Shown: positions 1,197 through 52,500 of the stretch, piece by piece
Layout of the letters: each line of letters starts with the position of its first letter
How positions within the stretch are numbered: position 1 is the first letter of the stretch
NCBI GenBank assembly: GCA_013288905.1
Contig: JABDAW010000003.1
Location: forward strand, 1-52,679
DNA length: 52,679 nucleotides
Direction of reading: 5' to 3'
Source of the DNA: Bacteroidota bacterium
GTDB taxonomy: Bacteria > Bacteroidota > Bacteroidia > AKYH767-A > JABDAW01
Position numbers and translations under genes: made by a program
The notes under the pieces: model-generated
What the model was told of the DNA's origin: nothing
Database searches by the model: none
Seen by the model: the letters and a program-made list of their open reading frames with translations, nothing else

Positions 1197-2639
1197 CTAT
1201 TCTTTCACAAACTTCCCGCGTGTTGTTTCATTCGCCCCAATAACCTCATAGAAATAAACCCCTTCGCTCCATGTGGAGATATCTATTTGGGTGTCATTGC
1301 CAGAAATTGTCTGTTGATAGATTTTATTCCCAAGAACATCTTCAATGGTTAATAGTGAATTGTTAATCGTTAATTGAGAATGAAGCGTAATGCTGGTAGT
1401 GGCGGGATTGGGGAAGAGCGTGATGGTTGGGGTATTTGTTATTGATTTAAAACCTGTAGTTATAACAGTTGCTTCAACAAAGTCACAATTGGGTTTCGCA
1501 CCAGTGGTTGAATCATTAAAATCAATTAGCTTGGTATAGGTATTTGTTACAATATCAAAACTGAAAGCGACACCTACATTATTTGCCCCACCATTTGTTG
1601 TTGTTCCATAAAGTTTTCCATTTCCACCATTAAATAAACTTCTTTGAGGACTTGATCCATTAACACTGTCAAACATGTGAACAACGGTATATGTATTCGT
1701 TAAAATATTATAATTGAAGATTACTCCAAAATCTCCTGAATCCGGATTATTTAAACAAACATGTGTTGCCATTCCATACAACAAACTATCGTTTACTTGA
1801 ATTAAACTTCCAGAAGGGAAACATCCATCATTTGACCAAAAATGATGCAAATCCGTAATCTGATTTGTTGATGTATCCAAGCTAAAGAATACACCACCAC
1901 CACTACCGGTATATTGATCATAGCCTCCATCTGATGCCATTCCATATAGCAGATTATTTGATGCCATTAATAAACTTCCATATATTGGATTAGCGCCGTT
2001 CCAATAATTAAATGATGCCAATGTATCATATTGATAACTTATAGGATCGAATTTAAAAATTACACCCCGATTATTAGTACCTCCTAAATTTGTCATTCCA
2101 TATAATTTACCGTTATTTAACTGAACTAATGTTCCATTAGGAAATGAACCTGATGCATTTTCAAAATCAAAAATATCGGTATAGATATTAGTTGTGGGAT
2201 TAAATCTATAAATTGTTCCATTTCCATTTGCTCCATAATTAGAACATAACCCGTATAAATTTCCATCCGAACCTAAAATCATTCCGCTTGTTGGATAAGC
2301 ACCTTGTAATGATTGATCCAAAAAATAATGTAATCTGTTATATGTTCCAGTTGAAGGATCAAAACTAAAAATAATACACGTATCATAACAATTAATATAA
2401 TAAGAAACTCCGTATAACAATCCATTGTTTGCTTGTACCATTCCCCCAATAGGTGAATCACCAATACCAGTCATTAAATGCACATTATGGAAATTACTTC
2501 CATTAGTATCTGCGGCAAAAATAGTTCCGCGGTTTGATATGCCACCAAATTGACAAGTTCCATATAGTTGCGTCTGTGCATTCGCCCCGAGCACCATCAG
2601 CCCCATCACCACCACGATTATCAAAGTAAAATTCTTCAT
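1197..2639 (-). CDS. secreted T9SS-sorted repeat protein (GloVer-like G-x-LYG...GG...G-x-(V/I)F repeats)
   Basis: N-terminal signal peptide. About 8 repeats such as GKLYGMTNLGGTNNRGVIFKFDP. C-terminal PNPA...GVYFYEV...GKFVKE sorting-domain pattern. Confidence 0.75.
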   Translation of the reverse strand: MKNFTLIIVVVMGLMVLGANAQTQLYGTCQFGGISNRGTIFAADTNGSNFHNVHLMTGIGDSPIGGMVQANNGLLYGVSYYINCYDTCIIFSFDPSTGTYNRLHYFLDQSLQGAYPTSGMILGSDGNLYGLCSNYGANGNGTIYRFNPTTNIYTDIFDFENASGSFPNGTLVQLNNGKLYGMTNLGGTNNRGVIFKFDPISYQYDTLASFNYWNGANPIYGSLLMASNNLLYGMASDGGYDQYTGSGGGVFFSLDTSTNQITDLHHFWSNDGCFPSGSLIQVNDSLLYGMATHVCLNNPDSGDFGVIFNYNILTNTYTVVHMFDSVNGSSPQRSLFNGGNGKLYGTTTNGGANNVGVAFSFDIVTNTYTKLIDFNDSTTGAKPNCDFVEATVITTGFKSITNTPTITLFPNPATTSITLHSQLTINNSLLTIEDVLGNKIYQQTISGNDTQIDISTWSEGVYFYEVIGANETTRGKFVKE

Positions 2640-2879
2640 AGTTATTAATTAAAATTAAGGATTCATTTTTCTTTTCAAGCCACAAAATTACGATATTGCT
2701 TTGGAATGACAAAATCTATTTGAAAGATTTCTTTTATGTGGAATAAAATTGTGCCTATATAATAAAGGAGTAAGGCAGCTATTTTTTCCACCCCTTCCAT
2801 TAATCTAATCTCTATGTTTTATAATTTTCAAAGAATATGAAAATTAATGAGGCATGAAGAAATTTTTCTTGGTATAATA

Positions 2880-3127
2880 CCAATTATGCAAGGGGGAATA
2901 CAAATTATGCAAGGTCGGAAGACAATTATGCAAGGTCGGAAGCAAATTATGCAAGGTCGGAAGGAAAATATGCAAGGTGGGATGGAAAATATGCAAGCGC
3001 GGAAGACAATTATGCAAGGTCGGAAGGACAATATGCAAGGTCGGAAGGACAATATGCAAGGTCGGAAGCAAATTATGCAAGGTCGGAAGGACAATATGCA
3101 AGGTCAGAAGGACAATATGCATCGCCA
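2880..3127. repeat. tandem array A: 12 copies of a 21-bp unit (wATGCAAGGTCGGAAG + 4-5 variable nt)
   Basis: TATGCAAGG recurs at 2885, 2906, 2927, 2948, 2969, 2990, 3011, 3032, 3053, 3074, 3095 and 3116 with no indels. Confidence 0.95.
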
Positions 3128-3302
3128 TTTTTTTGCTATTTTAGGTTTAAATGAACAAATTTAAGGCTGAATATTAGAATTGTTAATAACTTTTTTTAAA
3201 AAAATTTTCAAAAAATTTGGTCAATTCAAAAAAATATCTTTAATTTGCAGTCGCGAAAGTAGAAAAAGATTTCAAAAAAAAGAAAATAAATAAAAATAAA
3301 TC

Positions 3303-4334
3303 ATGGCTGAAATAGATGAATCAAAATATGAATGCACACAGAACCAACTCTACGTTCTGGGCGGGGTCTATGCTGCAAATCTTACAGCGAATCTTGCCGC
3401 ATTCACTGCCCATAGCCCGCGATTTATTACAGCTTTTATTACTGCCTTAACAGATGCCGTAACTTATGCCGAAGGTCTCCCAAATGATGAGCAGGTAAAG
3501 GTTCCTAAAATGGTGGATAGAGTAGGATTAATCCCTACCGGAAAATTTTCCATCAGCGATTTGAATGCCCTGAAAACTTATCTCCTCAAAGCCTTCCCGA
3601 CGACTTTCGCTATCATGTATAATTCCGCAGGAGCCAATCTGCGAAGAGATGCAGGCAATAATAATTGGGTGCAGATAAAAGCGCTCTTCAAAGCAATGGT
3701 AGATTTTATGGCTGTCCCTGCAAACCTTGCCCAATTGCTTTTGAATGATGTAATGCCCGCCGGTTTCCCCGCAGCAGTCGCCGCTCATCAACTTACATTC
3801 AATAATGATTATACCACTTTCCTTTCAGATAAATCTACCAGCGAACAAACAAGTGCCAAGATTACCGCGAATAATGTAATCAAAGCAATCCTGACCGACA
3901 TAGATGTTAATGGAGTCGTTATTTTTCCTCCCGGAAATACAAAACACGACCTCTTCGTCTTCAGCATCCAAAAAGATATTATTGCCCCAAAAGGCAGTGC
4001 CAGCCTCAAAGTTGGAGTGAAATTAGACGGTGCCTTCACCGTTTTGCCGGATATTCCGGTAAAGATTCAAGCCGCAGGTCAGCCCTCCATCACCGTAAAT
4101 ACGGATGAAGAAGGAATAGCACATTTCCCCGGAATAGACCCCACTAAATATAAGGTAACCATTATCTATCCGGAATTAGTTACTGTGGAATTCAACAAAG
4201 ATGTTGATACCGGAGTCAATGCCAGATCCGAAGTACTCATGGAAACGGCACCCCCGCCACTTGATGAGGAAGATCCCGAAGATGACGAATCTCCTATCAA
4301 AGAAGAAGAGAAAAAAGAAGAGAAAAAACCTTGA
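3303..4334 (+). CDS. hypothetical protein; C-terminal beta-sandwich (carboxypeptidase-regulatory-like) segment and acidic/lysine-rich tail
   Basis: 343-aa ORF with ATG start, followed by a hairpin terminator. No family recognised. Confidence 0.6.
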   Translation: MAEIDESKYECTQNQLYVLGGVYAANLTANLAAFTAHSPRFITAFITALTDAVTYAEGLPNDEQVKVPKMVDRVGLIPTGKFSISDLNALKTYLLKAFPTTFAIMYNSAGANLRRDAGNNNWVQIKALFKAMVDFMAVPANLAQLLLNDVMPAGFPAAVAAHQLTFNNDYTTFLSDKSTSEQTSAKITANNVIKAILTDIDVNGVVIFPPGNTKHDLFVFSIQKDIIAPKGSASLKVGVKLDGAFTVLPDIPVKIQAAGQPSITVNTDEEGIAHFPGIDPTKYKVTIIYPELVTVEFNKDVDTGVNARSEVLMETAPPPLDEEDPEDDESPIKEEEKKEEKKP

Positions 4335-4498: not shown

Positions 4499-4579
4499 CA
4501 GCCATGAAATCCCTATACCTTTATACTAACGAATTGCAATGGCAAATTGTCAATTCTCAATTGTCAATTGTCAATTAAA

Positions 4580-7765: not shown

Positions 7766-9017
7766 TAAAGGCATTCTCCAAAACATAGATTGGATAACCA
7801 CATCGCTTTATTTCCTCCTCATTACCATGGGTTGGATTTGTATTTATGCCGCCGATTATAACGAAGAGCACAGTAAAGTTTTTGACTTCACACAGAATCA
7901 TGGGAAGCAGCTTATGTGGATTGGTGGCTCATTAATTATAGCATTAATCTTTCTTATATTAGATGGGAAATTTTATTCCGCCTTCGCATATATTGTTTAT
8001 GGAATTACGATTGTTCTTCTCATTGCTGTTCTCTTGGTTGGAAGAAAAGTAAAGGGTTCTGTGTCATGGTTTGAAATCGGAAGTTTTAAGCTGCAGCCCG
8101 CAGAGTTCGCGAAGTTTGCCACTACATTGGTACTTGCAAAGTACTTGAGTAATATGAACATTAAATTGAATGATACCAAAACAAAACTGGTAGTCTTTAC
8201 AATTCTTTTCGTTCCTATTATTCTTATCATTTTGCAGAATGCAACGGGGTCCGCATTGGTCTATCTTTCTTTTGTATTTGTGCTTTATCGTGAAGGTTTA
8301 TCAGGCAATTATTTATTGTTAGGATTCATTGCCATCGTCATATTTATCTTAGCACTGCTGGTAGATAAATTGACGCTGATAATCATCTTTGCTTCCATAA
8401 TCTTTATTGTTTTTTTATTAGCCAGAAAGAATAAACGAAACATCCTATCATTGCTTGGAATATTCGCTATTTGTTCGGGGATGGTATTGAGTGTGGATTA
8501 TGTCTTTAATCATGTCCTTCATGAATATCAAAGAGGAAGAATAAATGTCCTTCTCGGCAAGGAACAAAACATTAAAGGTTCAGGTTGGAATGTGCATCAA
8601 AGTATGATTGCTATTGGTGACGGCGGATTTTTTGGTAAAGGATTTCTTAAAGGAAGCCAGACCACATTTGATTTTGTTCCTAAACAAAGTACGGACTTTA
8701 TATTCTGCACAGTAGGTGAGGAATTTGGGTTTGTGGGAGTGTTTGTTGTTATCAGTTTATTCTTGTTTTTATTAGTCCGAATCATACAACTTGCCGAACG
8801 ACAGCGAAGTTCTTTCTCAAGAATCTATGGATATGGCGTTGCTTCTATTCTCTTCTTCCATGTTATGATTAATATCGGCATGACCATCGGATTAGCACCG
8901 GTGATAGGCATTCCACTACCATTCTTCACTTATGGAGGCTCTTCTTTATTGGCATTCACGATGATGCTTTTTGTGTTTATTAGATTGGATGCACATCGGT
9001 TGCAGATATTAGGTTAG
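7755..9017 (+). CDS. rodA: rod shape-determining protein RodA (SEDS family)
   Basis: FtsW/RodA/SpoVE-type polytopic membrane protein. Overlaps the mrdA stop. Confidence 0.9.
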   Translation: MRDNKGILQNIDWITTSLYFLLITMGWICIYAADYNEEHSKVFDFTQNHGKQLMWIGGSLIIALIFLILDGKFYSAFAYIVYGITIVLLIAVLLVGRKVKGSVSWFEIGSFKLQPAEFAKFATTLVLAKYLSNMNIKLNDTKTKLVVFTILFVPIILIILQNATGSALVYLSFVFVLYREGLSGNYLLLGFIAIVIFILALLVDKLTLIIIFASIIFIVFLLARKNKRNILSLLGIFAICSGMVLSVDYVFNHVLHEYQRGRINVLLGKEQNIKGSGWNVHQSMIAIGDGGFFGKGFLKGSQTTFDFVPKQSTDFIFCTVGEEFGFVGVFVVISLFLFLLVRIIQLAERQRSSFSRIYGYGVASILFFHVMINIGMTIGLAPVIGIPLPFFTYGGSSLLAFTMMLFVFIRLDAHRLQILG

Positions 9018-9048
9018 ATCGAAATGTTTTTATTGTTTAAAAATTCTC

Positions 9049-9056
9049 TACTTTTG
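9049..9056 (+). promoter_or_regulatory. -7 promoter box TACTTTTG
   Basis: TAnnTTTG match 42 bp upstream of the ATG at 9098. Confidence 0.45.
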
Positions 9057-9097
9057 CAATTCATAAAAAAGAAATCTTATTATCTAATATCAAAAAT

Positions 9098-9655
9098 ATG
9101 AGGCGAACAAATCTATACATCATCGGGCTGTTGGTTGTTATCAGCAGTTGTACTTCTGTGAGGTATGATACCGAAAGATACATCAAAAATAATATCGAAA
9201 TTCATAAGACTGGTGAATATAGCAGCATCAAAATTATCTCTCTGTATAATCAAACTTCCATGAAGGACGGGTCGCGGCTGGAGATGACCGGATATAAATA
9301 TAATAACCAAAAAGGTTTGGTGGTTTCTGCATATCAATATTATAAGGACAGGAAGAAATTCAAAGATGATAACACCGTGCTTTCTAATACTGCATTTATT
9401 CTTTTGGATACGGTGCAATGTCGCACGATACTTACTAATTACAATCAATTGGAAGCAAAATTAAAGACCGAAACTCCCGGCAGTGAAGAAGAGATATTCA
9501 TGGATTTTACTGTATCTGAAGATTTATTCTTCAGTATGCAAAAAGCCAAGGGTGGTGGGGTTTCTAATGATGTTTATTTATGGATTAAAGGAGAAAAATA
9601 TACCATTGCTTCGGATGCTTTGTTGAATAATATGGAGGATTTTTTGAAGTGGTAA
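9098..9655 (+). CDS. hypothetical lipoprotein
   Basis: Signal peptide with lipobox VISSC. 185 aa. Confidence 0.6.
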   Translation: MRRTNLYIIGLLVVISSCTSVRYDTERYIKNNIEIHKTGEYSSIKIISLYNQTSMKDGSRLEMTGYKYNNQKGLVVSAYQYYKDRKKFKDDNTVLSNTAFILLDTVQCRTILTNYNQLEAKLKTETPGSEEEIFMDFTVSEDLFFSMQKAKGGGVSNDVYLWIKGEKYTIASDALLNNMEDFLKW

Positions 9656-9664
9656 AGTGGTGTA

Positions 9665-9722
9665 AAGGTATAGGGTATAAGGGTATAAGGGTATAAGGGT
9701 ATAAGGGTATAAAGGGTATAAA
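9665..9722. repeat. octamer tandem repeat (GGGTATAA)x6-7
   Basis: GGGTATAA at 9673, 9681, 9689, 9697, 9705 and 9714. Fills the 69-bp gap up to the gldA ATG. Confidence 0.9.
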
Positions 9723-9724
9723 TT

Positions 9725-10639
9725 ATGTCAGTAAAAGTTGTTGAGATTTCTAAGGTTTATGGGAAGCAGAATGCTTTGGATGGTGTTTCGTTTGAGGTAA
9801 ATGCTGGTGAAGTTCTTGGGTTTCTTGGTCCTAATGGTGCGGGCAAATCTACCATGATGAAGATACTGACTTGCTTTATTCCACAGACTTCCGGGACTGC
9901 TTTTGTTTGTGGACATGATGTGAATGAAGAGCCGCTTGAGGTGAAGAAATGCGTGGGATATTTGCCGGAGAATAATCCTTTATATCATGATATGTATGTC
10001 AAGGAATATCTTGAATTCATTGCTGGCATACAAGGATTGAAAGGGAGTAAAACCGCAAGGGTTAAAGAGATGATTGGTATGACCGGGCTTGAGGTGGAGC
10101 AACATAAAAAGATAGGTGCGCTTTCTAAAGGGTATCGGCAACGAGTCGGACTGGCACAGGCTCTGATTCATGATCCTAAGGTGTTGATTCTTGATGAACC
10201 TACTTCAGGATTAGACCCTAATCAACTTACTGAAATAAGAAGTTTGATTAAGAATATCGGCAAGGAAAAGACGGTGATATTTTCTACTCACATTATGCAG
10301 GAAGTTACTGCTATATGCAGCAGAGTGGTGATTATTAATAAAGGAAAAATTGTTGCTGATGATCCTATAGAAGTTCTTAAACAACATGCCGTGAGTAAGG
10401 CTGTCATATCTGTAGAATTTGATGCTCCGACATCAAAGACTGCCTTGAAAAAGATTGCCGGTGTTAGCGAAGTAGAACTGATTAAAGACAATCAATGGCA
10501 ATTATATTCCGATGCTGAAACTGATATTCGCAAAGAGCTTTTCAACTTTGCCATTGAGAATAAATTAGCCATTATTACTATCAAAAAAGAGGAGCAGAAT
10601 TTGGAGGAAATCTTTCATGAATTGACGAAGAATAGTTGA
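9725..10639 (+). CDS. gldA: gliding motility-associated ABC transporter ATP-binding subunit GldA
   Basis: Walker A GPNGAGKST, ABC signature and Walker B. GldA-like length and sequence. Confidence 0.8.
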   Translation: MSVKVVEISKVYGKQNALDGVSFEVNAGEVLGFLGPNGAGKSTMMKILTCFIPQTSGTAFVCGHDVNEEPLEVKKCVGYLPENNPLYHDMYVKEYLEFIAGIQGLKGSKTARVKEMIGMTGLEVEQHKKIGALSKGYRQRVGLAQALIHDPKVLILDEPTSGLDPNQLTEIRSLIKNIGKEKTVIFSTHIMQEVTAICSRVVIINKGKIVADDPIEVLKQHAVSKAVISVEFDAPTSKTALKKIAGVSEVELIKDNQWQLYSDAETDIRKELFNFAIENKLAIITIKKEEQNLEEIFHELTKNS

Positions 10640-14073: not shown

Positions 14074-14101
14074 CCTAATTCCTAATTTTTAATTCCTAAT
14101 T
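14074..14101. repeat. AT-rich dispersed element CCTAATTCCTAATTTTTAATTCCTAATT
   Basis: 28-nt sequence identical to 23569-23596. Related copies at 23236-23270, 23363-23390, 25060-25087 and 42735-42762. Confidence 0.9.
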
Positions 14102-14472: not shown

Positions 14473-14510
14473 ATTATTATTTTATACTTATTTTTCTATT
14501 CCATTCCCCA

Positions 14511-14772
14511 AAAAGACGAAAGTGCAGCCGTATGGTTAGAAACGGCTGCCCTTTCTTTAGAAACGGCTGCACTATCCTTATATATGGCGGAACAATGCAT
14601 GGAAACGGCGGAAGTATCCTTACATTGTTCCGCCGTTTCTTTACAAACGGCGGAACTATCCTTACAAACGGCAGAACAATGCATGGAAACGGCGGAAGTA
14701 TCCATACATAGTTCCGCCGTTTGTAAAGAAACGGCGGAAGAATGCTTGTATCCTTCCGCACTTTCGTCTTTT
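14511..14772. repeat. tandem array B: 11 x 21-bp units (AAACGGCGGAA core, some inverted), bounded by a 15-bp inverted repeat
   Basis: AACGGC at 14541, 14562, 14604, 14646, 14667, 14688 and 14730. Inverted cores at 14627 and 14711. AAAAGACGAAAGTGC at 14511-14525 pairs with GCACTTTCGTCTTTT at 14758-14772. Confidence 0.9.
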
Positions 14773-14792
14773 AGAGACATGAAATGTGGTTT

Positions 14793-21386: not shown

Positions 21387-21431
21387 TTCAGGGAATTATA
21401 AATGATGAATTATAAATTATAAATTTATAGG

Positions 21432-23141: not shown

Positions 23142-23264
23142 AGTTTTTCTTTCACCGCCGCCAAATCGGGTAATTTTTGCACTGTTCACTATTCACTGTC
23201 TGTGTTTGTCCTAACCTGAAATAAATTTGCCAAACGTAATTCCTGATTTGTAATTTTTAATTCC

Positions 23265-23272
23265 TAATTTCG
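23265..23272 (+). promoter_or_regulatory. -7-like box TAATTTCG
   Basis: One-mismatch variant of TAnnTTTG, 11 nt upstream of tRNA-Arg. Confidence 0.35.
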
Positions 23273-23282
23273 CCCCCGCATT

Positions 23283-23356
23283 GGACCCGTAGTTCAACTG
23301 GATAGAATGACAGATTTCGGCTCTGTTGGTTGGGGGTTCGAATCCCTCCGGGTTCA
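23283..23356 (+). tRNA. tRNA-Arg (anticodon TCG)
   Basis: 74-nt cloverleaf. Acceptor GGACCCG/CGGGTTC, anticodon stem ACAGA/TCTGT with loop TTTCGGC, T-loop TTCGAAT. Confidence 0.85.
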
Positions 23357-23395
23357 CAAATCAATTAGGAATTAGGAATTAAAAATTAGGGCTTA

Positions 23396-23533
23396 AGTAA
23401 GTTTTTAATGGAAAAGAAGAATGATAAATTCAACACAGAGAAACAGAGATACACAGAGTTTCACAGAGAAAAATAAGACTCTGTGTATCTCTGTTTCTCT
23501 GTGTTGAAAAAAAGCTTCCATTAAAAACTTACT
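23396..23533. repeat. 138-nt compound hairpin (18-bp outer stem plus perfect 28-bp inner stem)
   Basis: AGTAAGTTTTTAATGGAA at 23396-23413 pairs with 23516-23533. CAACACAGAGAAACAGAGATACACAGAG at 23431-23458 pairs with 23479-23506. Confidence 0.9.
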
Positions 23534-23599
23534 ATAGCCAAAATTAGGAATTAAGTTGTTATATTATTCCTAATTCCTAATTTTTAATTCCTAATTGAC

Positions 23600-24994: not shown

Positions 24995-25144
24995 AATTTT
25001 GTACAATTTGTCATACATACATTCTGAATGATTTCCTACTTTCGCCCCATGCTATATTCAATTAAGAATTAGGAATTATGAATTACGATGCTTGGGGTAT
25101 TGATTAATAAAAGGAGATGGGGGTATTTTGAAAAATAGTAAACT

Positions 25145-28819: not shown

Positions 28820-28848
28820 TGAATTTCATTAAAAGGTGTATCTTTTGC

Positions 28849-29085
28849 TCCGAAAACTGTTTCTATCGTTCCGAAAGCTGTTTCTATTGTTCCGAAAGCT
28901 GTTTCTATCGTTCCGAAAGCTGTTTCTATCGTTCCAATAGCTGTTTCTATTACTCCGAAAGATGTTTCTTCTGCTCCAAAAGATGTTTCTTCTGCTCCAA
29001 AAGATGCATCTTTTACTCCAAAAGATGCATCTTTTACTCCAATAGAAGCATCTTTTGGAACGATAGAAGCATCTTTTGCTCTTGA
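28849..29085. repeat. tandem array C: about 11 x 21-bp units drifting from TCCGAAAGCTGTTTCTATCGT to TCCAAAAGATGCATCTTTTAC
   Basis: TCCGAAA/TCCAAAA recurs at 28849, 28870, 28891, 28912, 28933, 28954, 28975, 28996, 29017 and 29038, with a degenerate unit at 29059. Confidence 0.9.
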
Positions 29086-29166: not shown

Positions 29167-29174
29167 TAGTTTTG
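29167..29174 (+). promoter_or_regulatory. -7 promoter box TAGTTTTG
   Basis: 60 bp upstream of the ATG at 29234, between array C and the gene. Confidence 0.45.
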
Positions 29175-29233: not shown

Positions 29234-30154
29234 ATGAGAAAAACAGTACTTATCGCAGCATTAATTTGCTTATTCGCTATGCCATTCGCCTACGGGCAGG
29301 CAATCCCTGATCAAGGTTTTGAAACCTGGACGACACATGGGACAACTTTTACCTACCAGGTTCCAACCGGTTGGGCTACCATTGATTCATTTACCTCGCA
29401 GGCTGCTGTTGTCGGATTGGTATCACAAGATTCTTTTTATCATCACGGCGGAAATTATTCTATTAAACTTCAAAGCAAAACTGTTATTACAGCGGTTGTG
29501 CCTGGTGCAGCATGCTCTGGAATTATTCATCTTGTGAGTCCTTCACCACTTACTTACACTATTCTTGGGGGGTTTCCTGTGTCCGCAAAGCCAAATTTCT
29601 TAGCCGGATGGTTCAGGGATTCATTGCCTGGTGTTGACACCTCTTATATCGTTGCCTTTTTCACCAAGTGGGATACCAATTTGGGCAAAAGAGATACTGT
29701 TGCCTATGGCGGTTTAGCTATAGATTCAAATCATTTGTCATGGACACCTTTTCAATTGGCTATTCTTAGTGATTCTTTGAATCCGGTAACTCCTGATACG
29801 GGTGTAGTAGTGTTTTATTCAGGAAAAGGATCCGGCGGAGTTGTCGGTTCTACATTGTGGGTTGATGACCTTGGTTTCACAACTGGGATAGGTGAATTAG
29901 ATCCACTTAATGGGAATTATGACCTATATCCTAACCCTGCTTCTCAAAATCTTTATATCGTGAATAATAACCTTTTCAAGAAAATTTCAATTATCAATGT
30001 TTATGATGAAATGGGCAGGAAGGTGAATACTTCTAACTTGAATGAAGATGTTTCGGTACTGAATGTAAAATCATTATCGGCAGGGATCTATTTCTATCAG
30101 ATTGTAAGCCTTAATCAAACGCTGCTCAAGACCGGAAAGTTTATTGTTGAATAA
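29234..30154 (+). CDS. secreted protein with T9SS C-terminal sorting domain
   Basis: Signal peptide. C-terminal YPNPASQNLYI...GIYFYQIV...GKFIVE. Confidence 0.7.
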   Translation: MRKTVLIAALICLFAMPFAYGQAIPDQGFETWTTHGTTFTYQVPTGWATIDSFTSQAAVVGLVSQDSFYHHGGNYSIKLQSKTVITAVVPGAACSGIIHLVSPSPLTYTILGGFPVSAKPNFLAGWFRDSLPGVDTSYIVAFFTKWDTNLGKRDTVAYGGLAIDSNHLSWTPFQLAILSDSLNPVTPDTGVVVFYSGKGSGGVVGSTLWVDDLGFTTGIGELDPLNGNYDLYPNPASQNLYIVNNNLFKKISIINVYDEMGRKVNTSNLNEDVSVLNVKSLSAGIYFYQIVSLNQTLLKTGKFIVE

Positions 30155-42731: not shown

Positions 42732-42827
42732 GTCAATTAGGAATTACGAATTAGGAATTAGGATGTGGGCATGACTCATAATTTATAATTCCTTTCAGCG
42801 TTGAATCCTCCATAAATAATTAATTCT

Positions 42828-44516: not shown

Positions 44517-44578
44517 AAGGCTATTTTGAATCAAATTAAAACGGTGAAAGTTAATATCGTAAGCAAGATTTACTTTAT

Positions 44579-44790
44579 AAATACCTCCGCTGATGCCGTA
44601 ATTACCTCCGCAAATTCTGTCAATACCTCCGCTGATGGCAAAAATACCTCCGCAATTCCCGTCAATACCTCCGCTGATGCCAAGAATACCTCCGCAATTC
44701 CCGTCAATACCTCCGCTGATGCCAAAAATACCTCCGCAATTCCCGTCAATACCCTCCGTTGATGCCGAAAATACCTCCGCTAATTCAATC
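44579..44790. repeat. tandem array D: 10 x 21-bp units (AATACCTCCGC core) in a 42-bp alternating pattern
   Basis: ACCTCC at 44583, 44604, 44625, 44646, 44667, 44688, 44709, 44730, 44751 and 44773. A 1-nt insertion sits in the ninth unit. Confidence 0.9.
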
Positions 44791-44842: not shown

Positions 44843-44850
44843 TAAATTTG
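44843..44850 (+). promoter_or_regulatory. -7 promoter box TAAATTTG
   Basis: 26 bp upstream of the ATG at 44876, between array D and the gene. Confidence 0.5.
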
Positions 44851-44875: not shown

Positions 44876-46255
44876 ATGAAAATATCCAATATCCTTTGTA
44901 CCCTTGCCGCCATTTTTATCTTGAATAGTTCGAATGCGCAGACTTTTTCTCCGGTCGCGAATGGCACGAATAGCGACATTTATGCCTTAGCGGTTTATAA
45001 TAGCCAACTATGGATCGGCGGAGAATTCACGGAGTGTTATAGCAGCGACACTATTATCAGCCCGATGCTCACTATTTTTGATGGCAGCAATTTCAACCTT
45101 CCCACCGACTCCGGCTGGTCTGGCGGAGGGATTACAAATTTTTTGGTGAACACTACGAATCTGTTTATAGGAGGATATTTTTCGCTTCCTTTTGATTCGA
45201 TTACCGACATCAACAACCTCGTCAAATATAATGGTACCTGGGGAGACACCGCCTATAGTCTCAACAATACCGTGGATGCGATGATTTATTATAACGGGAA
45301 TTTGTACGCCGGCGGGGCATTTAATTCTACGGATTCCGGTGCTGTGAATTACATCGCAAAATGGGACTCGGTGAACCATGTTTGGGCGAATGTGACGACA
45401 GGCGTGACCAATGGCGAGGTCAGGGCTTTGGAAGTCTTCAATGGCTATCTTTATGCTGCCGGAAACTTCACGCTCATTGACGGTGTTCCCACAAATTATA
45501 TTGCGAAATGGAATGACACGCTCTGGCAGCCAATCGGGCTGGGGCTGATAGGAAATGTCAATGCCCTGAAAGTCTTTGACACCCTGCTCTATGCCGGAGG
45601 AAACTTTATCCTTGCCGGGGCTGATACTTTTAATCATATTGCGGCTATTGATGCCAATAATAATTATTTTAAAGTCGGCTACGGGCATTCCGTAAACGGG
45701 CTTGATTCCACTGGAATAGGAAGTGATACACTTGCCGATGTCAGATGTTTTGAAGTCCTGAATGGCAGCTTATACATTGGCGGATATTTTTCTGAAGCCA
45801 ATGGTGCACCAGGCAATTCGATCATAAATTGGAATGGATCAAATTATATAAGCATGGGTAATGGAATAACTTCGTTTGGCGGCGTCGTATATGCCCTGAA
45901 AGGCTGGAATGGAAGCCTGTATATTGGTGGTTCGTTTGACCAAGCCGACAGTATTGCCGCTAATAATATTTGCAAATATGATGCACCGGCAGGAATTAAA
46001 AACGTCAGGAATAATATTGCTGTGAGCACCTTTCCAAACCCTGCCAATACGGTTATTAATTTTAATATCATCAATGAGAATAACATATCCGGCATCATTA
46101 AATTACTTGATATCAGCGGCAGAGAGATGATACAAGAATCTTTTCATGTTGGTCTGAACAGCCTTGATATCAGCAATTTGGATAATGGAATGTATCTCTA
46201 TGAAATCATTGGAAATTCTTCCATTTTTCAAGGGAAGATTATTGTTGAGAAATAA
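44876..46255 (+). CDS. secreted beta-propeller-like repeat protein with T9SS C-terminal sorting domain
   Basis: Signal peptide. Repeats of the ...LYAGGNF...NYIAKW(D/N) type. C-terminal FPNPANTVINF...GMYLYEI...GKIIVEK. Confidence 0.7.
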   Translation: MKISNILCTLAAIFILNSSNAQTFSPVANGTNSDIYALAVYNSQLWIGGEFTECYSSDTIISPMLTIFDGSNFNLPTDSGWSGGGITNFLVNTTNLFIGGYFSLPFDSITDINNLVKYNGTWGDTAYSLNNTVDAMIYYNGNLYAGGAFNSTDSGAVNYIAKWDSVNHVWANVTTGVTNGEVRALEVFNGYLYAAGNFTLIDGVPTNYIAKWNDTLWQPIGLGLIGNVNALKVFDTLLYAGGNFILAGADTFNHIAAIDANNNYFKVGYGHSVNGLDSTGIGSDTLADVRCFEVLNGSLYIGGYFSEANGAPGNSIINWNGSNYISMGNGITSFGGVVYALKGWNGSLYIGGSFDQADSIAANNICKYDAPAGIKNVRNNIAVSTFPNPANTVINFNIINENNISGIIKLLDISGREMIQESFHVGLNSLDISNLDNGMYLYEIIGNSSIFQGKIIVEK

Positions 46256-51362: not shown

Positions 51363-52070
51363 TTAGAATTGCACCAAAGTGCCAACTGCCTCGCCTTCGA
51401 CAATTCTCAACAAATTTCCTTTCTGATTCATGTCAAACACTATAATCGGAAGCTTATTTTCATTGCATAGAGTGAAGGCGGTAAGGTCCATAATATTTAA
51501 TCCCTGTTTATAAACTTCATCGAAAGAGATTGTTTGATACTTCGTCGCTGTCTTGTCCTTTTCAGGGTCGGCAGAATAGATTCCATCCACACGAGTTCCC
51601 TTCAATACCACATCAGCTTCAATTTCTATGGCACGCAGGCAAGCTGCCGTATCAGTCGTAAAATAAGGATTTCCAGTGCCTGCACCGAAGATGACCACGC
51701 GACCTTTTTCGAGATGACGGATTGCTCGACGCTTGATATAAGGCTCACAAATCTGTTCCATTTTAATGGCAGATTGCAGGCGAGTACTCACATCTATCCG
51801 TTCCAAAGCGGACTGCAATGCCATGCTGTTGATCACCGTAGCGAGCATACCCATATAATCTCCTTGCACCCTGTCTATACCCCCTTCTTCTGCCTGAATC
51901 CCTCGAAAAATATTCCCGCCACCTATCACGATAGCCACCTGAATACCTTGGTCAACTGCATTCTTGATTTCATTGGAATATTGATTAAGCATATCATGAT
52001 CAATGCCAAATTGTTTAGACCCCATCAGCGATTCGCCGCTCAATTTCAGTAAGATTCTTTTGTATTTCAT
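51363..52070 (-). CDS. pyrH: UMP kinase
   Basis: [18 protein letters not shown] and amino-acid-kinase fold motifs. Confidence 0.95.
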
Positions 52071-52098: not shown

Positions 52099-52106
52099 CA
52101 AAAGTA
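52099..52106 (-). promoter_or_regulatory. -7 promoter box TACTTTTG
   Basis: Minus-strand match 29 bp upstream of the pyrH ATG. Confidence 0.5.
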
Positions 52107-52201: not shown

Positions 52202-52437
52202 ACCAGTTTGAACTGCAAAGAGTTTAGTTTGAACTGTGCGGGGACCAGTTTGAGCTGGTAGGTATTTAGTTTGAACTGGTGAGGGACCAATTTGAACTGG
52301 GACGGATATATTTTGAACTGGGACGGGTATTATTTGAACTGGAGGTGTACCAGTTTGAACTGGGAGGTGTACCAGTTTGAACTGGGACGGATATTGTTTG
52401 AACTGCTGACAAAATTGTTTTAACTGGAAGGTGGATG
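52202..52437. repeat. tandem array E: 11 x 21-bp units with core (CCAG)TTTGAACTGG
   Basis: TTTGAACT recurs at 52207, 52228, 52249, 52270, 52291, 52312, 52333, 52354, 52376, 52397 and 52418. One 1-nt insertion. Confidence 0.9.
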
Positions 52438-52460
52438 ACTTCATTCTAACGTCAGGCAAT

Positions 52461-52500
52461 AAAAAAACCACGAATCCTATATACGCAGGATTCGTGGTTT
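52461..52500 (-). terminator. rho-independent terminator of the partial upstream gene
   Basis: AAACCACGAATCC/GGATTCGTGGTTT 13-bp stem. T-run on the minus strand. Confidence 0.7.

Follow-up and report, generated by a model that had tools for sequence, protein, structure and literature searches.

Introduction

Bacterial intergenic DNA is usually short and poor in repeats. The MIRU/VNTR loci of mycobacteria consist of 40-100 bp units that form sequence families and lie inside operons, with small ORFs overlapping the stops and starts of the neighboring genes, and CRISPR arrays are built of 23-55 bp repeats with unique spacers of similar length, together with cas genes or a leader. R6K carries seven contiguous 22-bp iterons. 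Each 17-22 bp iteron combines a core that is conserved with a brief linker that varies; the repeats are direct and spaced by two helical turns, and their cognate protein binds them cooperatively on one face of the DNA (PMC4980987). Non-coding satellites have also been catalogued in prokaryotes, such as the 46-nt families of Leptospira interrogans and the heptamer satellites of Chloroflexus (Subirana & Messeguer 2019, PMC6749651). Most of the surveyed prokaryotes have fewer than 4 satellites per Mb, the reported families share sequence, and a fixed period combined with unrelated units does not appear in the survey (PMC6749651).

Among known elements, BrickBuilt, a minisatellite-MITE of Porphyromonas gingivalis with a 23-nt unit, comes closest to the repeats considered here. 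Its 19 copies (~8 per Mb) belong to a single sequence family and have in common a leader, a tail, and terminal inverted repeats (Klein et al. 2015, PMC4596501). Its elements contain up to ~23 units with 0-6% indels, have promoter elements inside, and adjoin T9SS-cargo (PorSS CTD) genes at ~7-8 of the 19 loci (PMC4596501).

Here, we analyze a stretch of 52,679 nucleotides from a Bacteroidota bacterium, called the window in the following, and in particular a tandem repeat near its left end, array A. Array A belongs to a class of non-coding intergenic minisatellites found throughout a clade, with a fixed 21-bp step and units that differ from array to array, a combination that no described element fully matches; likewise, nothing directly matching was found in the literature on bacterial intergenic 21-bp repeats. 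An earlier note, made from the sequence of the window alone, had considered the arrays not to be a described element class. This stands in so far as no fixed period with unrelated units is seen in BrickBuilt or in the satellites, but two-turn intergenic minisatellites and satellites as such are known.

Comparison with Described Elements

Like BrickBuilt, the arrays occur in Bacteroidota, are always intergenic, and consist of head-to-tail units of about two turns, without spacers and with a conserved and a variable part; several copies lie beside T9SS-cargo genes, and spurious ORFs are called on them. In contrast to BrickBuilt, they have unrelated units, no common flanks, a strict 21-bp step, a narrow range of copy numbers, a density of ~100 per Mb, and fewer internal −7 boxes than expected (2 vs ~5). 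With the prokaryotic satellites they share the form of intergenic tandem repeats that are scattered over the chromosome and specific to a lineage, and their homogenized, non-genic, head-to-tail units fall within the 10-100 bp of non-coding minisatellites and satellites.

For the way in which the arrays may work, iterons offer the closest analogy, both being direct repeats in the 17-22 bp range at about two-turn spacing with a conserved core. However, a replicon has a single iteron family, accompanied by DnaA boxes, an AT-rich unwinding element and the gene of a rep initiator, while the 53 kb studied here are ordinary chromosome with five unrelated arrays, and no rep gene was found in them. Arrays B, C, and E superficially resemble MIRU in having ORFs that overlap the stop or start codons of the neighbors, but a good number of arrays are situated between divergent genes, and in several no frame is open. 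A CRISPR array was also considered and rejected: a full period takes up 21 bp, the variable blocks, 5-10 nt in length, are mutually related, and no cas domains were found in the window.

Array A

The features at array A are the following (window coordinates, strand, description).

1197-2639, minus strand: divergent gene to the left of array A, secreted protein with a T9SS C-terminal sorting domain (Pfam PF18962)
2683-2690, minus strand: Bacteroidota-type −7 promoter box TAATTTTG, serving the T9SS-cargo gene 1197-2639; 194 bp from array A
2869-2883, no strand: palindrome TTGGTATAATACCAA, visible in the sequence itself, adjoining array A on its left
2885-3121, no strand: array A, 11 full 21-bp units and a truncated 12th, each unit with the core TATGCAAGGTCGGAAG and a 5-nt variable block; 63-bp higher-order period
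3303-4334, plus strand: gene to the right of array A, 343 aa, weak CarboxypepD_reg-like match

Tandem Repeats Finder (TRF) places the array at 2881-3121, with a period of 21, 10.3-10.9 copies, 83-86% matches, and a 63-bp super-period. In the unit table, TATGCAAG opens 11 consecutive units from 2885 to 3095; the unit at 2990 is TATGCAAGC, and the truncated 12th unit at 3116 is TATGCATCG. The variable block reads ACAAT, CAAAT, GAAAA, or GACAA. An autocorrelation scan, which is independent of TRF, gives a lag-21 self-match of up to 0.86 in 126-bp windows. The phase-locked 21-bp units with these four blocks, as described in the earlier note, are thus confirmed by TRF, the unit table, and autocorrelation, and the length and self-identity of the array far exceed chance. 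The block variants AAGACAATTATG and AAGGACAATATG are read most simply as compensating 1-nt indels. The distance to the start codons is 182 bp for the gene at 3303 (plus strand) and 246 bp for that at 2639 (minus strand).

Array A is identical base for base, with equal copy number, in two other independent metagenome assemblies (L001 and L004), and is therefore not an assembly artefact; all contigs of the window strain that were examined are identical. The contigs L002, L003, and L005 stop ~30-50 bp before the array, so that short-read assembly may limit the array length that is observed.

The Other Arrays of the Window

All four further 21-bp arrays of the earlier note are recovered by TRF, at 14536-14747, 28831-29081, 44578-44786, and 52202-52433. 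The features at these arrays are as follows.

14515-14766, no strand: array B, ~12 units, GAAACGGCGGAAC occurring in both orientations; higher-order period of 84 bp; between two minus-strand genes
28849-29079, no strand: array C, ~11-12 units drifting from TCCGAAAGCTGTTTCTATCGT to TCCAAAAGATGCATCTTTTAC (palindromic core)
29167-29174, plus strand: −7 box TAGTTTTG, located 87 bp downstream of array C and serving the T9SS-cargo gene 29234-30154
44581-44790, no strand: array D, 10 units in which two 10-nt blocks alternate beside the core ATACCTCCGC; higher-order period of 42 bp
44843-44850, plus strand: −7 box TAAATTTG, located 52 bp downstream of array D and serving the T9SS-cargo gene 44876-46255
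52099-52106, minus strand: −7 box TACTTTTG for pyrH (51363-52070, minus strand); 95 bp from array E
52202-52441, no strand: array E, 11 units with the palindromic core CAGTTTGAACTG and a 9-nt variable block
52467-52498, minus strand: intrinsic terminator hairpin ending the minus-strand gene upstream of array E

Array C begins 30 bp past the stop codon of a BNR/sortilin gene. The stretch around its TAGTTTTG box looks conserved by eye in the related locus L108, although a MAFFT alignment did not place the two copies together. The two unit types of array D agree over a stretch of 11 nt, while 9 of the 10 positions that follow are different. Array E contains 22-bp steps, one when counted by eye and two by a walking algorithm, and the order along transcription there is terminator, array E, promoter, and pyrH.

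The gene starts lie 43 bp (B), 155 bp (C), 86 bp (D), and 132 bp (E) from the arrays; the earlier note had given 40-180 bp upstream of a gene start for the five intergenic arrays. A TAnnTTTG box between array and ATG, noted earlier in three cases, is found in four, namely at the gene to the left of A and at C, D, and E, against ~0.5 expected. Together, the arrays make up ~17% of the intergenic DNA and 2% of the window.

Distribution and Site Conservation

Sixteen period-21 arrays are present in 148 kb of the clade (~100 per Mb), this sample being the window together with the loci L001, L008, L009, L098, L099, L107, L108, and L109. No array of period 21 or 42 was detected by TRF and the autocorrelation scan in 1.5 Mb of other Bacteroidota loci. 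The excess of the 21-bp period, for which the earlier note had proposed a scan, is extreme and clade-specific. The clade is narrow, since there are no arrays in the relatives L094, L096, L097, L100, L101, and L103 (29-64% protein identity). In L012, which is more distantly related, an array of ~11 units has a 22-bp period, which is not a multiple of 3 but also corresponds to about two turns, and L064 has a 19-bp repeat of ~3 copies.

Comparison of orthologous intergenic regions, also suggested in the note, yields two pairs of arrays at kept sites with similar copy numbers. The site of array A is kept in L008 as array G, where the flanking 343-aa protein is 64% identical and the copy numbers are 11.5 and 10.3, and the site of array C is kept in L108 as array O, with a flanking protein of 85% identity and ~12 vs 10.8 copies. 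In both pairs the units are unrelated. The units of positional orthologues are no more alike than random pairs, and unit sequences change about as fast as neutral DNA. Array sites thus persist between species while the unit sequences are replaced.

Two further observations concern the neighborhood of arrays in the relatives. The synteny between L098 and L099 stops beside arrays at both ends of the shared block, and the Flavo-1 RNA, which is absent from the window, adjoins arrays K and M.

Architecture of the Arrays

A typical array consists of ~7-13 units and spans 150-270 bp, with ~11 copies being common and short arrays of 2-6 copies rare compared to those of 9-13. Within the unit, 10-16 bp form a conserved core and 5-10 bp a variable block, and the units of an array match at 64-94%. 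What the arrays share is therefore an architecture and not a sequence, as the earlier note had it: a 21-bp step, typically 7-13 copies, and unrelated units. Exactly 21 bp are found in 133 of the 136 unit-to-unit steps, across which the indel:substitution ratio is 3:271 (at least 271 distinct substitution states); this is only marginally lower than the ratio of ~3:60 in the flanking non-coding DNA (hand count, alignment A1). The higher-order periods of 42, 63, and 84 bp correspond to blocks of 2-4 units and indicate that arrays grow and homogenize in unit blocks, the signature of unequal exchange. With a G+C content of 44%, vs 30% in other intergenic DNA, the arrays are the richest part of the genome.

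A length of 21 bp is two turns of B-DNA, so that a conserved core in each unit places the same core on the same helix face along the whole array. Arrays B, C, E, F, and I have dyad-symmetric cores, on both strands. An overall curvature from in-phase repetition is predicted by a wedge model for 9 of 13 arrays, M, D, and K among them and N and B being straight, and is only weakly above column-permuted controls (hand-combined Fisher p ~0.02 over 13 arrays). Within the units we find no division into an AT-rich and a GC-rich half, no internal 10/11-bp half-sites of the OmpR/PhoB type, and no 7-bp sub-periods.

Between arrays, no shared k-mer or motif exceeds shuffled controls (k = 8, 10, 12 and k = 4-6). 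TCCG/CGGA occurs in 8 of the 16 unit consensus sequences, which is not significant family-wise. The pairwise null is exceeded only by B-D (14/21) and E-K (16/21), of which the former is the only such pair within the window; the description of the five units as unrelated was thus essentially right. Arrays E and K, the latter in L098, have the 12-mer ATATCCGTCCCA in common at non-orthologous loci. Judged from this likeness, small unit families exist, which qualifies the earlier view that the arrays are not one dispersed repeat family, although most units are indeed unrelated. Solo copies of array cores are absent elsewhere in 59 kb of the window genome, apart from two 1-mismatch matches to the 11-nt core of D.

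Position Relative to Genes

Every array faces at least one gene start, with 5 in divergent gaps, 11 in tandem ones, and 0 in convergent ones (n = 16). The terminator of the previous gene lies on the far side of the array in three cases (E, M, and P). The arrays appear to occupy the untranscribed gap that extends from a gene end or terminator to the next promoter, or the gap between divergent promoters. The genes that flank them are housekeeping genes or encode T9SS cargo, and the housekeeping genes among which the window arrays lie include mreC, mrdA, rodA, gldA/F/G-like genes, trpS, asnS, ruvC, and pyrH. A T9SS-cargo gene is faced by 4 of the 13 independent array loci, a weak trend toward enrichment (4 of ~18 facing starts vs a baseline of ~10%, p ~0.1 by hand calculation). 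No transposase was found near the arrays in the window, and no similarity to annotated plasmids or phages in the plasmid and phage collections.

Coding and RNA Readings

Since 21 bp is seven codons, the arrays might be small genes for heptad-repeat proteins, perhaps translationally coupled to their neighbors, which we regard as extremely unlikely. The period is a multiple of 3, gene callers put ORFs on the arrays, and three ORFs fit their surroundings well: that of B (14496-14780, minus strand, 94 aa, KDTSAVS-like heptads) lies closely between two genes, a plus-strand ORF of C begins at a TAATG overlapping the upstream stop codon, and that of E finishes at an ATGA overlapping the pyrH start. 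However, stops interrupt every one of the six frames in K and I; in M, the most homogeneous array, no frame is open on the minus strand, which is the strand of both flanking genes; and the only fully open frame of D is antisense to its neighbors. A frame-shifting 22-bp unit is present in the middle of E, the array in L012 has a 22-bp period, and five arrays lie between divergent genes. The mean of 2.3 open frames out of 6 does not look enriched. In addition, the variation falls in contiguous blocks without codon or third-position periodicity, and the array ORFs match no Pfam family. On account of the stops, the block variation, and the missing Pfam match, heptad-repeat genes are rejected as a general explanation. 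An array inside a translated protein at a homologous locus, which the earlier note had named as evidence against an intergenic element, was not encountered.

It is also very unlikely that the arrays act at the RNA level, as structured or protein-sponging RNAs or as parts of UTRs that terminate or stabilize the mRNAs of their neighbors. The structured transcripts that the earlier note had suggested do not hold generally, because excess self-complementarity is limited to 5 of 13 arrays (B, C, E, F, and I, which fold far better than column-permuted controls, z −2.5 to −7) and does not differ between the strands, as would be expected from dyad symmetry of the DNA. Seven of the 13 show no excess structure, and the plus strand of K folds at −0.4 kcal/mol. 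Array C and its orthologue O do begin right after a stop codon, without a separate terminator, B lies between two same-strand genes, and CGGA recurs in half of the 16 consensus sequences, but this count does not reach family-wise significance and the −7 boxes have no consistent orientation into the arrays. No Rfam family was found even at E up to 1, the only hits of the Rfam 15 covariance models being chance microRNA-like matches on array C, far below threshold. The C-rich or CGGA strand has, by eye, no consistent relation to the flanking genes. A Rho-site-like C-rich strand, whose orientation by eye is inconsistent, and promoter boxes driving array transcripts, which are not consistent either, were rejected as candidates.

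Function and Origin

The arrays are DNA-level features, neither genes nor known RNA families. The reading that we tentatively favor is that of a helically phased DNA element akin to iterons, which evolves by unequal exchange while its two-turn step is under constraint. Selection for helical phasing would hold the 21-bp step, and the arrays probably serve as a protein-binding or architectural platform. Such platforms, cooperative protein-binding or architectural (curved or looping) ones, might modulate or insulate the adjacent promoter; a single architectural protein might bind all of them, or there might be several regulators, each recognizing its own core. What speaks against a binding platform is the fast change of the units, which even between orthologues are no more alike than random pairs; a neutral rate of change is awkward for sequence-specific recognition, and ~100 arrays per Mb with unrelated cores would need many readers or a sequence-blind one. 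Moreover, unequal exchange alone keeps the period once an array exists, so that its retention at orthologous sites is not proof of selection.

A neutral or selfish satellite without function is a serious rival to the phased element, possible if somewhat doubtful. It would arise by a clade-specific mutational process of fixed 21-bp step, or from one ancient satellite that spread and whose copies then diverged at each locus by concerted evolution, and would seed intergenic DNA wherever arrays are tolerated, with unequal exchange keeping the period. The unconstrained unit sequences between species agree with it, as do the 42/63/84-bp periods and the decayed edge units, both typical of unequal exchange. 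The likeness of E-K (16/21) and B-D (14/21) hints at families copied between loci, and the synteny ends of L098/L099 adjoin arrays at both borders. We know of no slippage or repair process with a 21-bp step, a point against the neutral satellite. There is, on the other hand, a precedent for an enzyme that writes fixed-step tandem DNA, the bacterial DRT10 reverse transcriptase, which makes 7-nt repeats (bioRxiv 10.64898/2026.04.29.721553). The scarcity of 2-6-copy arrays relative to those of 9-13 is not predicted by a simple stepwise model, ~11 copies are kept at the same site across 64-85% protein identity, and within-unit indels are almost absent and seemingly compensated. Neither the highest G+C of an AT-rich genome, which decaying neutral DNA should not have, nor the 0 of 16 arrays in a convergent gap fits a neutral satellite. 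A quite unlikely alternative is dispersal by transposition of non-autonomous mobile elements with an internal minisatellite. BrickBuilt offers a model for it in the same phylum (intergenic, with a 23-nt unit of conserved and variable halves, and adjoining T9SS-cargo genes as 4 of 13 loci do here), and the E-K core is common to two loci. However, when the 200-bp flanks of 13 arrays are compared all against all by BLAST, only positional orthologues and overlapping flanks match, and no leader, tail, or terminal inverted repeat is found in common; the units are unrelated within one genome (~59 kb sampled) while BrickBuilt is one sequence family, and the window has no transposase near the arrays. 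Finally, an active, site-anchored system may write and overwrite the arrays by an RT-like, integrase-like, or recombinase-like enzyme, which we consider unlikely. The candidate enzyme would lay ~11 copies of a 21-nt template at preferred sites upstream of promoters, and the finished arrays would be read by a partner, either a protein family or a guide RNA. Such a system would explain the exact step, the narrow copy number, the high G+C, the unrelated units at kept sites, and the presence of the core ATATCCGTCCCA at sites that are not orthologous in different genomes.

Conclusions

The density of the arrays is ~25 times the 4 per Mb below which most surveyed prokaryotes stay (PMC6749651). In practice, they break short-read assemblies, attract spurious gene calls of 80-105 aa, and could serve as strain-typing (VNTR) markers. 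The strict step, the kept sites, and the replaced content point one of two ways, either to a structural code upstream of promoters, for example for protein polymerization, looping, or insulation between transcription units, or to a fixed-step mutational or writing mechanism. Promoter architecture in Bacteroidota is poorly understood, and either of the two, if true, would be new biology.

Period-21 Arrays in the Window

TRF recovers five tandem arrays with a period of 21 bp in the window, namely array A and the four further arrays (B-E) that the earlier note had already described.

Period-21 arrays of the window (TRF) and their neighbors
Array A, 2881-3121: 10.3-10.9 copies, 83-86% matches; between divergent genes, 1197-2639(-), encoding a T9SS cargo protein, and 3303-4334(+)
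Array B, 14536-14747: between two minus-strand genes
Array C, 28831-29081: flanked by two plus-strand genes, the second encoding a T9SS cargo protein
Array D, 44578-44786: same arrangement as array C, with a plus-strand T9SS-cargo gene following a plus-strand gene
Array E, 52202-52433: neighbors are a terminator hairpin (52467-52498) and pyrH

When array A is written in 21-bp rows, TATGCAAG opens 11 consecutive units, the first at 2885 and the last at 3095; a 12th, which is truncated, begins at 3116. As first described, the units combine 16 nearly invariant positions with a 5-nt variable block, which takes the forms ACAAT, CAAAT, GAAAA, and GACAA. A 63-bp super-period outscores the period of 21 in TRF. 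The array is real DNA and not an assembly product, because two other metagenome assemblies (L001 and L004), independent of this one, have it in identical form and with equal copy number; several short-read contigs stop ~30-50 bp before its right edge. Together, the arrays make up 17% of the intergenic DNA of the window, in which TRF finds no long arrays of other periods, just 7-mer tracts (4-5 copies) and one 8-mer tract (8 copies).

Public gene calls place ORFs on the arrays at 2844-3128(-) and 2847-3164(+) of the window, and at 9542-9826, 563-886, and 3656-3865 of the related loci L001, L008, and L108, respectively. These hypothetical proteins of 69-107 aa, whose strand differs between assemblies of identical sequence, are probably spurious annotations.

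Occurrence in Relatives

Relatives were collected via the flanking proteins, and every close relative examined carries period-21 arrays.

Period-21 arrays in related loci
L001 (same strain, upstream of the window): array F, ~11 units
L008: array G, 10.3 units
L009: arrays H and I, 7 and 9.2 units
L098: arrays J, K, and L, 7, 13, and 4 units
L099: array M, 11.6 units, 94% matched
L107: array N, 9.2 units
L108: array O, ~10.8 units
L109: array P, 7.6 units

The excess of period 21 that the earlier note had proposed to look for is strongly borne out: the clade has 16 arrays in 148 kb (~105 per Mb), versus no array of period 21 or 42 in 1.5 Mb of background, composed of 80 loci from other Bacteroidota (via pyrH) and seven more distant ones. 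This excess is extreme and restricted to one clade. A published survey found fewer than 4 satellites per Mb in most prokaryotes (PMC6749651). An autocorrelation scan, independent of TRF, gives lags of 21 and 42 in the clade, plus one 16-bp array, and six periodic segments with lags of 8, 14, 14, 16, 22, and 54 in the background. The 16-bp array (L001 6473-6573, 6.3 units of TATACCCCTATTCCTT) lies between two aminotransferase genes, ~200 bp upstream of the first base of the window, and is the sole long non-21 array found in the clade.

One of the lag-42 signals is the coding repeat of L107, where the gene 8512-9507(-) encodes a 331-aa protein without Pfam match that contains six 14-aa repeats (NGIPRKNLGIKYIM) with a DNA period of 42 bp; another relative has a gene of equal length at the matching position. 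This is a genuine coding repeat, distinct from the arrays, whose period happens to be twice 21.

The more distant relative L012 carries a 22-bp array at 9182-9423 (unit ACTGCGTATNNNNATTTACTGC, ~11 units, ~240 bp), in the gap that separates recO from a small ORF. Downstream of it lies a homologue, 29% identical, of the 343-aa gene to the right of array A (3303-4334(+)). The overall size of this array equals that of the 21-bp arrays and its period is one base longer, which is again about two helical turns, yet no multiple of three.

Genomic Setting and Architecture

The window, from an uncultured Bacteroidota bacterium that has genes for gliding and type IX secretion (T9SS), is a stretch of ordinary chromosome. 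It contains mreC, mrdA, and rodA, gldA-, gldF-, and gldG-like ABC transporter genes, and aroK, trpS, asnS, purQ, ruvC, radC, and pyrH, and it encodes five secreted proteins that carry a T9SS C-terminal sorting domain. The intergenic position upstream of gene starts, as originally noted, holds throughout: all 16 arrays lie in gaps facing at least one start (5 divergent, 11 tandem, 0 convergent), and for E, M, and P the terminator of the upstream gene is on the far side of the array. At C, D, and E, and on the left side of A, a Bacteroidota-type -7 box (TAnnTTTG) separates the array from the start codon, at a distance of 25-59 nt to the ATG (4 seen vs ~0.5 expected), and the positions of these boxes place the arrays 50-195 bp upstream of promoters.

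The unit-to-unit step is 21 bp in 133 of 136 cases and 22 bp in 3, against at least 271 distinct substitution states, and some variants of the variable block of array A are most simply explained by an insertion offset by a deletion. Each unit consists of a conserved core of 10-16 nt and a variable block of 5-10 nt; the alternating unit types of array D, for example, have 11 identical nt and then differ at 9 of 10. Decayed edge units and a higher-order periodicity (42, 63, or 84 bp) are indications of unequal exchange. Most arrays have 9-13 units, and arrays of 2-6 units are almost absent though detectable by TRF. Short-read assembly may in part determine the upper size limit. At 44% G+C, the arrays exceed both coding DNA (39%) and the remaining intergenic DNA (30%). 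Neither an AT/GC bipartite layout nor a sub-period of 10/11 or 7 bp was found inside the units. Their sequences are essentially unrelated, as first noted, with no k-mer shared among arrays beyond shuffled controls.

Evolution between Genomes

Three sites can be compared between genomes. Arrays A and G (11.5 and 10.3 units) are located upstream of 64%-identical proteins, while C and O (~12 and 10.8 units) both begin just past the stop codon of a BNR gene, the two BNR genes being 85% identical, and have the same T9SS-cargo gene on their other side. The promoter stretch TTTGTAnnTTTGTCCTCGCAAAAA beside C/O looks conserved by eye; a MAFFT alignment did not pair the copies. Arrays K and M are at matching positions in two genomes with 94-96% protein identity, each followed by a Flavo-1 RNA and an ABC ATPase gene, and their common flank is ~90% conserved (by eye) to within ~40 bp of the array, beyond which synteny ends. 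At all three sites the similarity of the units is at the level of random pairs, at most 12/21 ungapped. The unit consensus sequences of A and G, compared by hand, have three blocks in common (TATG, GGTCG, GGAnAA), whose order is unchanged and whose indels offset one another. Similarity is found between E and K at non-orthologous loci, with 16/21 positions equal, including the 12-mer ATATCCGTCCCA, in genomes just 72% identical in the BNR protein, and between B and D (14/21). Thus, sites and architecture persist, the sequence does not, and at least some cores recur elsewhere.

The Flavo-1 RNA (RF01705) is found at L098 15622-15727(-), L099 9380-9488(-), and L009 173-277(+), with 58-67 bits (gathering score 42); Rfam gives no Flavo-1 match in the window. 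In L098 and L099 it lies between array K or M and the downstream gene, and in L009 it precedes the homologue of the 343-aa gene, at the site taken by arrays A and G in the window and L008. At window 9659-9721, eight copies of GGTATAAG stop 3 bp short of the ATG that starts a gldA-like ABC ATPase gene (9725-10639), whose homologue in L098 and L099 has Flavo-1 and a 21-bp array upstream instead; array I of L009 is likewise upstream of an ABC ATPase gene.

A second clade-specific repeat class consists of AT-rich heptamer tracts of the AATTAGG/CCTAATT type, with 4-5 copies, in short intergenic gaps.

Heptamer tracts
Window: 4545-4576, 14074-14101, 21394-21425, 23237-23271, 23363-23390, 23566-23596, 25060-25085, 42735-42763
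L099: ~1945-1975
L107: 9595-9624

Just downstream of tRNA-Arg (23283-23357), a large inverted-repeat structure spans 23360-23597. Its core is a hairpin (23430-23507) with a near-perfect 29-bp stem of ACAGAGA-type repeats, enclosed by more inverted arms and oppositely oriented AATTAGG tracts, and Rfam returns just sub-threshold microRNA-like matches for it. Between L098 and L099, synteny is lost at both ends of a ~7 kb common block (8150-8520/1900-2250 and 15440-16400/9210-9960). Both breaks fall in intergenic gaps that contain heptamer tracts or a 21-bp array; the borders of rearrangements or insertions thus appear to coincide with gaps that carry repeats.

Nature of the Arrays

The present analysis shows the arrays to be intergenic minisatellites, a class present across the clade; they are non-coding features at the DNA level, with a strict 21-bp step, and are shaped by unequal exchange. 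Several frames are open by default, since 21 bp is seven codons (mean 2.3 of 6 per array). As genes, the arrays are rejected: K and I are closed by stops in all six frames, M is shut in all three minus-strand frames while both flanking genes are on the minus strand, a 22-bp unit occurs in the middle of E, and the variable positions form contiguous blocks that show no codon periodicity. A Pfam search of the array ORFs gave no match. Structured transcripts, which the earlier note had offered as one reading, are not general. An Rfam search of the arrays gave no match even at E up to 1, and self-complementarity in excess of column-permuted controls is limited to B, C, E, F, and I (e.g., CAGTTTGAACTG in E, AAAAGATGCATCTTTT in C, and inverted units in B), being absent in A, D, G, H, J, K, and M. 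It appears on both strands, as DNA dyad symmetry would give. A MITE-like element is rejected, as the 200-bp flanks have no common sequence except where they overlap or belong to positional orthologues; CRISPR arrays and coupled ORFs of the MIRU type are excluded as well, and plasmid and phage collections gave no match.

Among described elements, the closest is BrickBuilt from Porphyromonas gingivalis, which likewise is intergenic, has spacerless units (23-nt) with a conserved and a variable half, and adjoins T9SS-cargo genes at several loci. Unlike the arrays, it is a single sequence family with leader and tail segments that have inverted-repeat ends, tolerates indels, and carries promoter elements (PMC4596501). 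When tested for BrickBuilt's defining features, the arrays did not show them. Iterons are the best analogy for mechanism, although the arrays lack a replicon context.

The reading we favor, as quite possible, is that the arrays form a phased protein-binding or architectural platform between a transcription unit and the next promoter. The step appears to be constrained, since it equals two helical turns and the conserved core of every unit would then lie on one side of the helix, as in iterons; a small bend per unit would sum in one plane. A wedge model predicts overall curvature for 9 of 13 arrays (end-to-end distance/contour length <0.8 vs 0.93 ± 0.06 in background windows); the same model leaves N and B straight and gives a weak excess over column-permuted units. 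The main rival, which we consider less likely, is functionless satellite DNA arising from a fixed-step process or by descent from one old 21-bp satellite. The near-neutral turnover of unit sequence fits such DNA, in which unequal exchange would conserve a period once set, but the scarcity of short arrays, the persistence of sites at ~11 copies, the compensated indels, the high G+C content, and the lack of arrays in convergent gaps argue against it. A dedicated array-writing mechanism is also conceivable. Bacterial reverse transcriptases making fixed-step tandem DNA exist, such as DRT10 with its 7-nt tandem repeats (bioRxiv 10.64898/2026.04.29.721553); one template, however, would not yield unrelated units.

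The arrays are a real and robust finding. Among prokaryotic intergenic minisatellites they are best classed as a form of their own with a putative function, distinguished by the fixed two-turn period, the unrelated units, and the high density.
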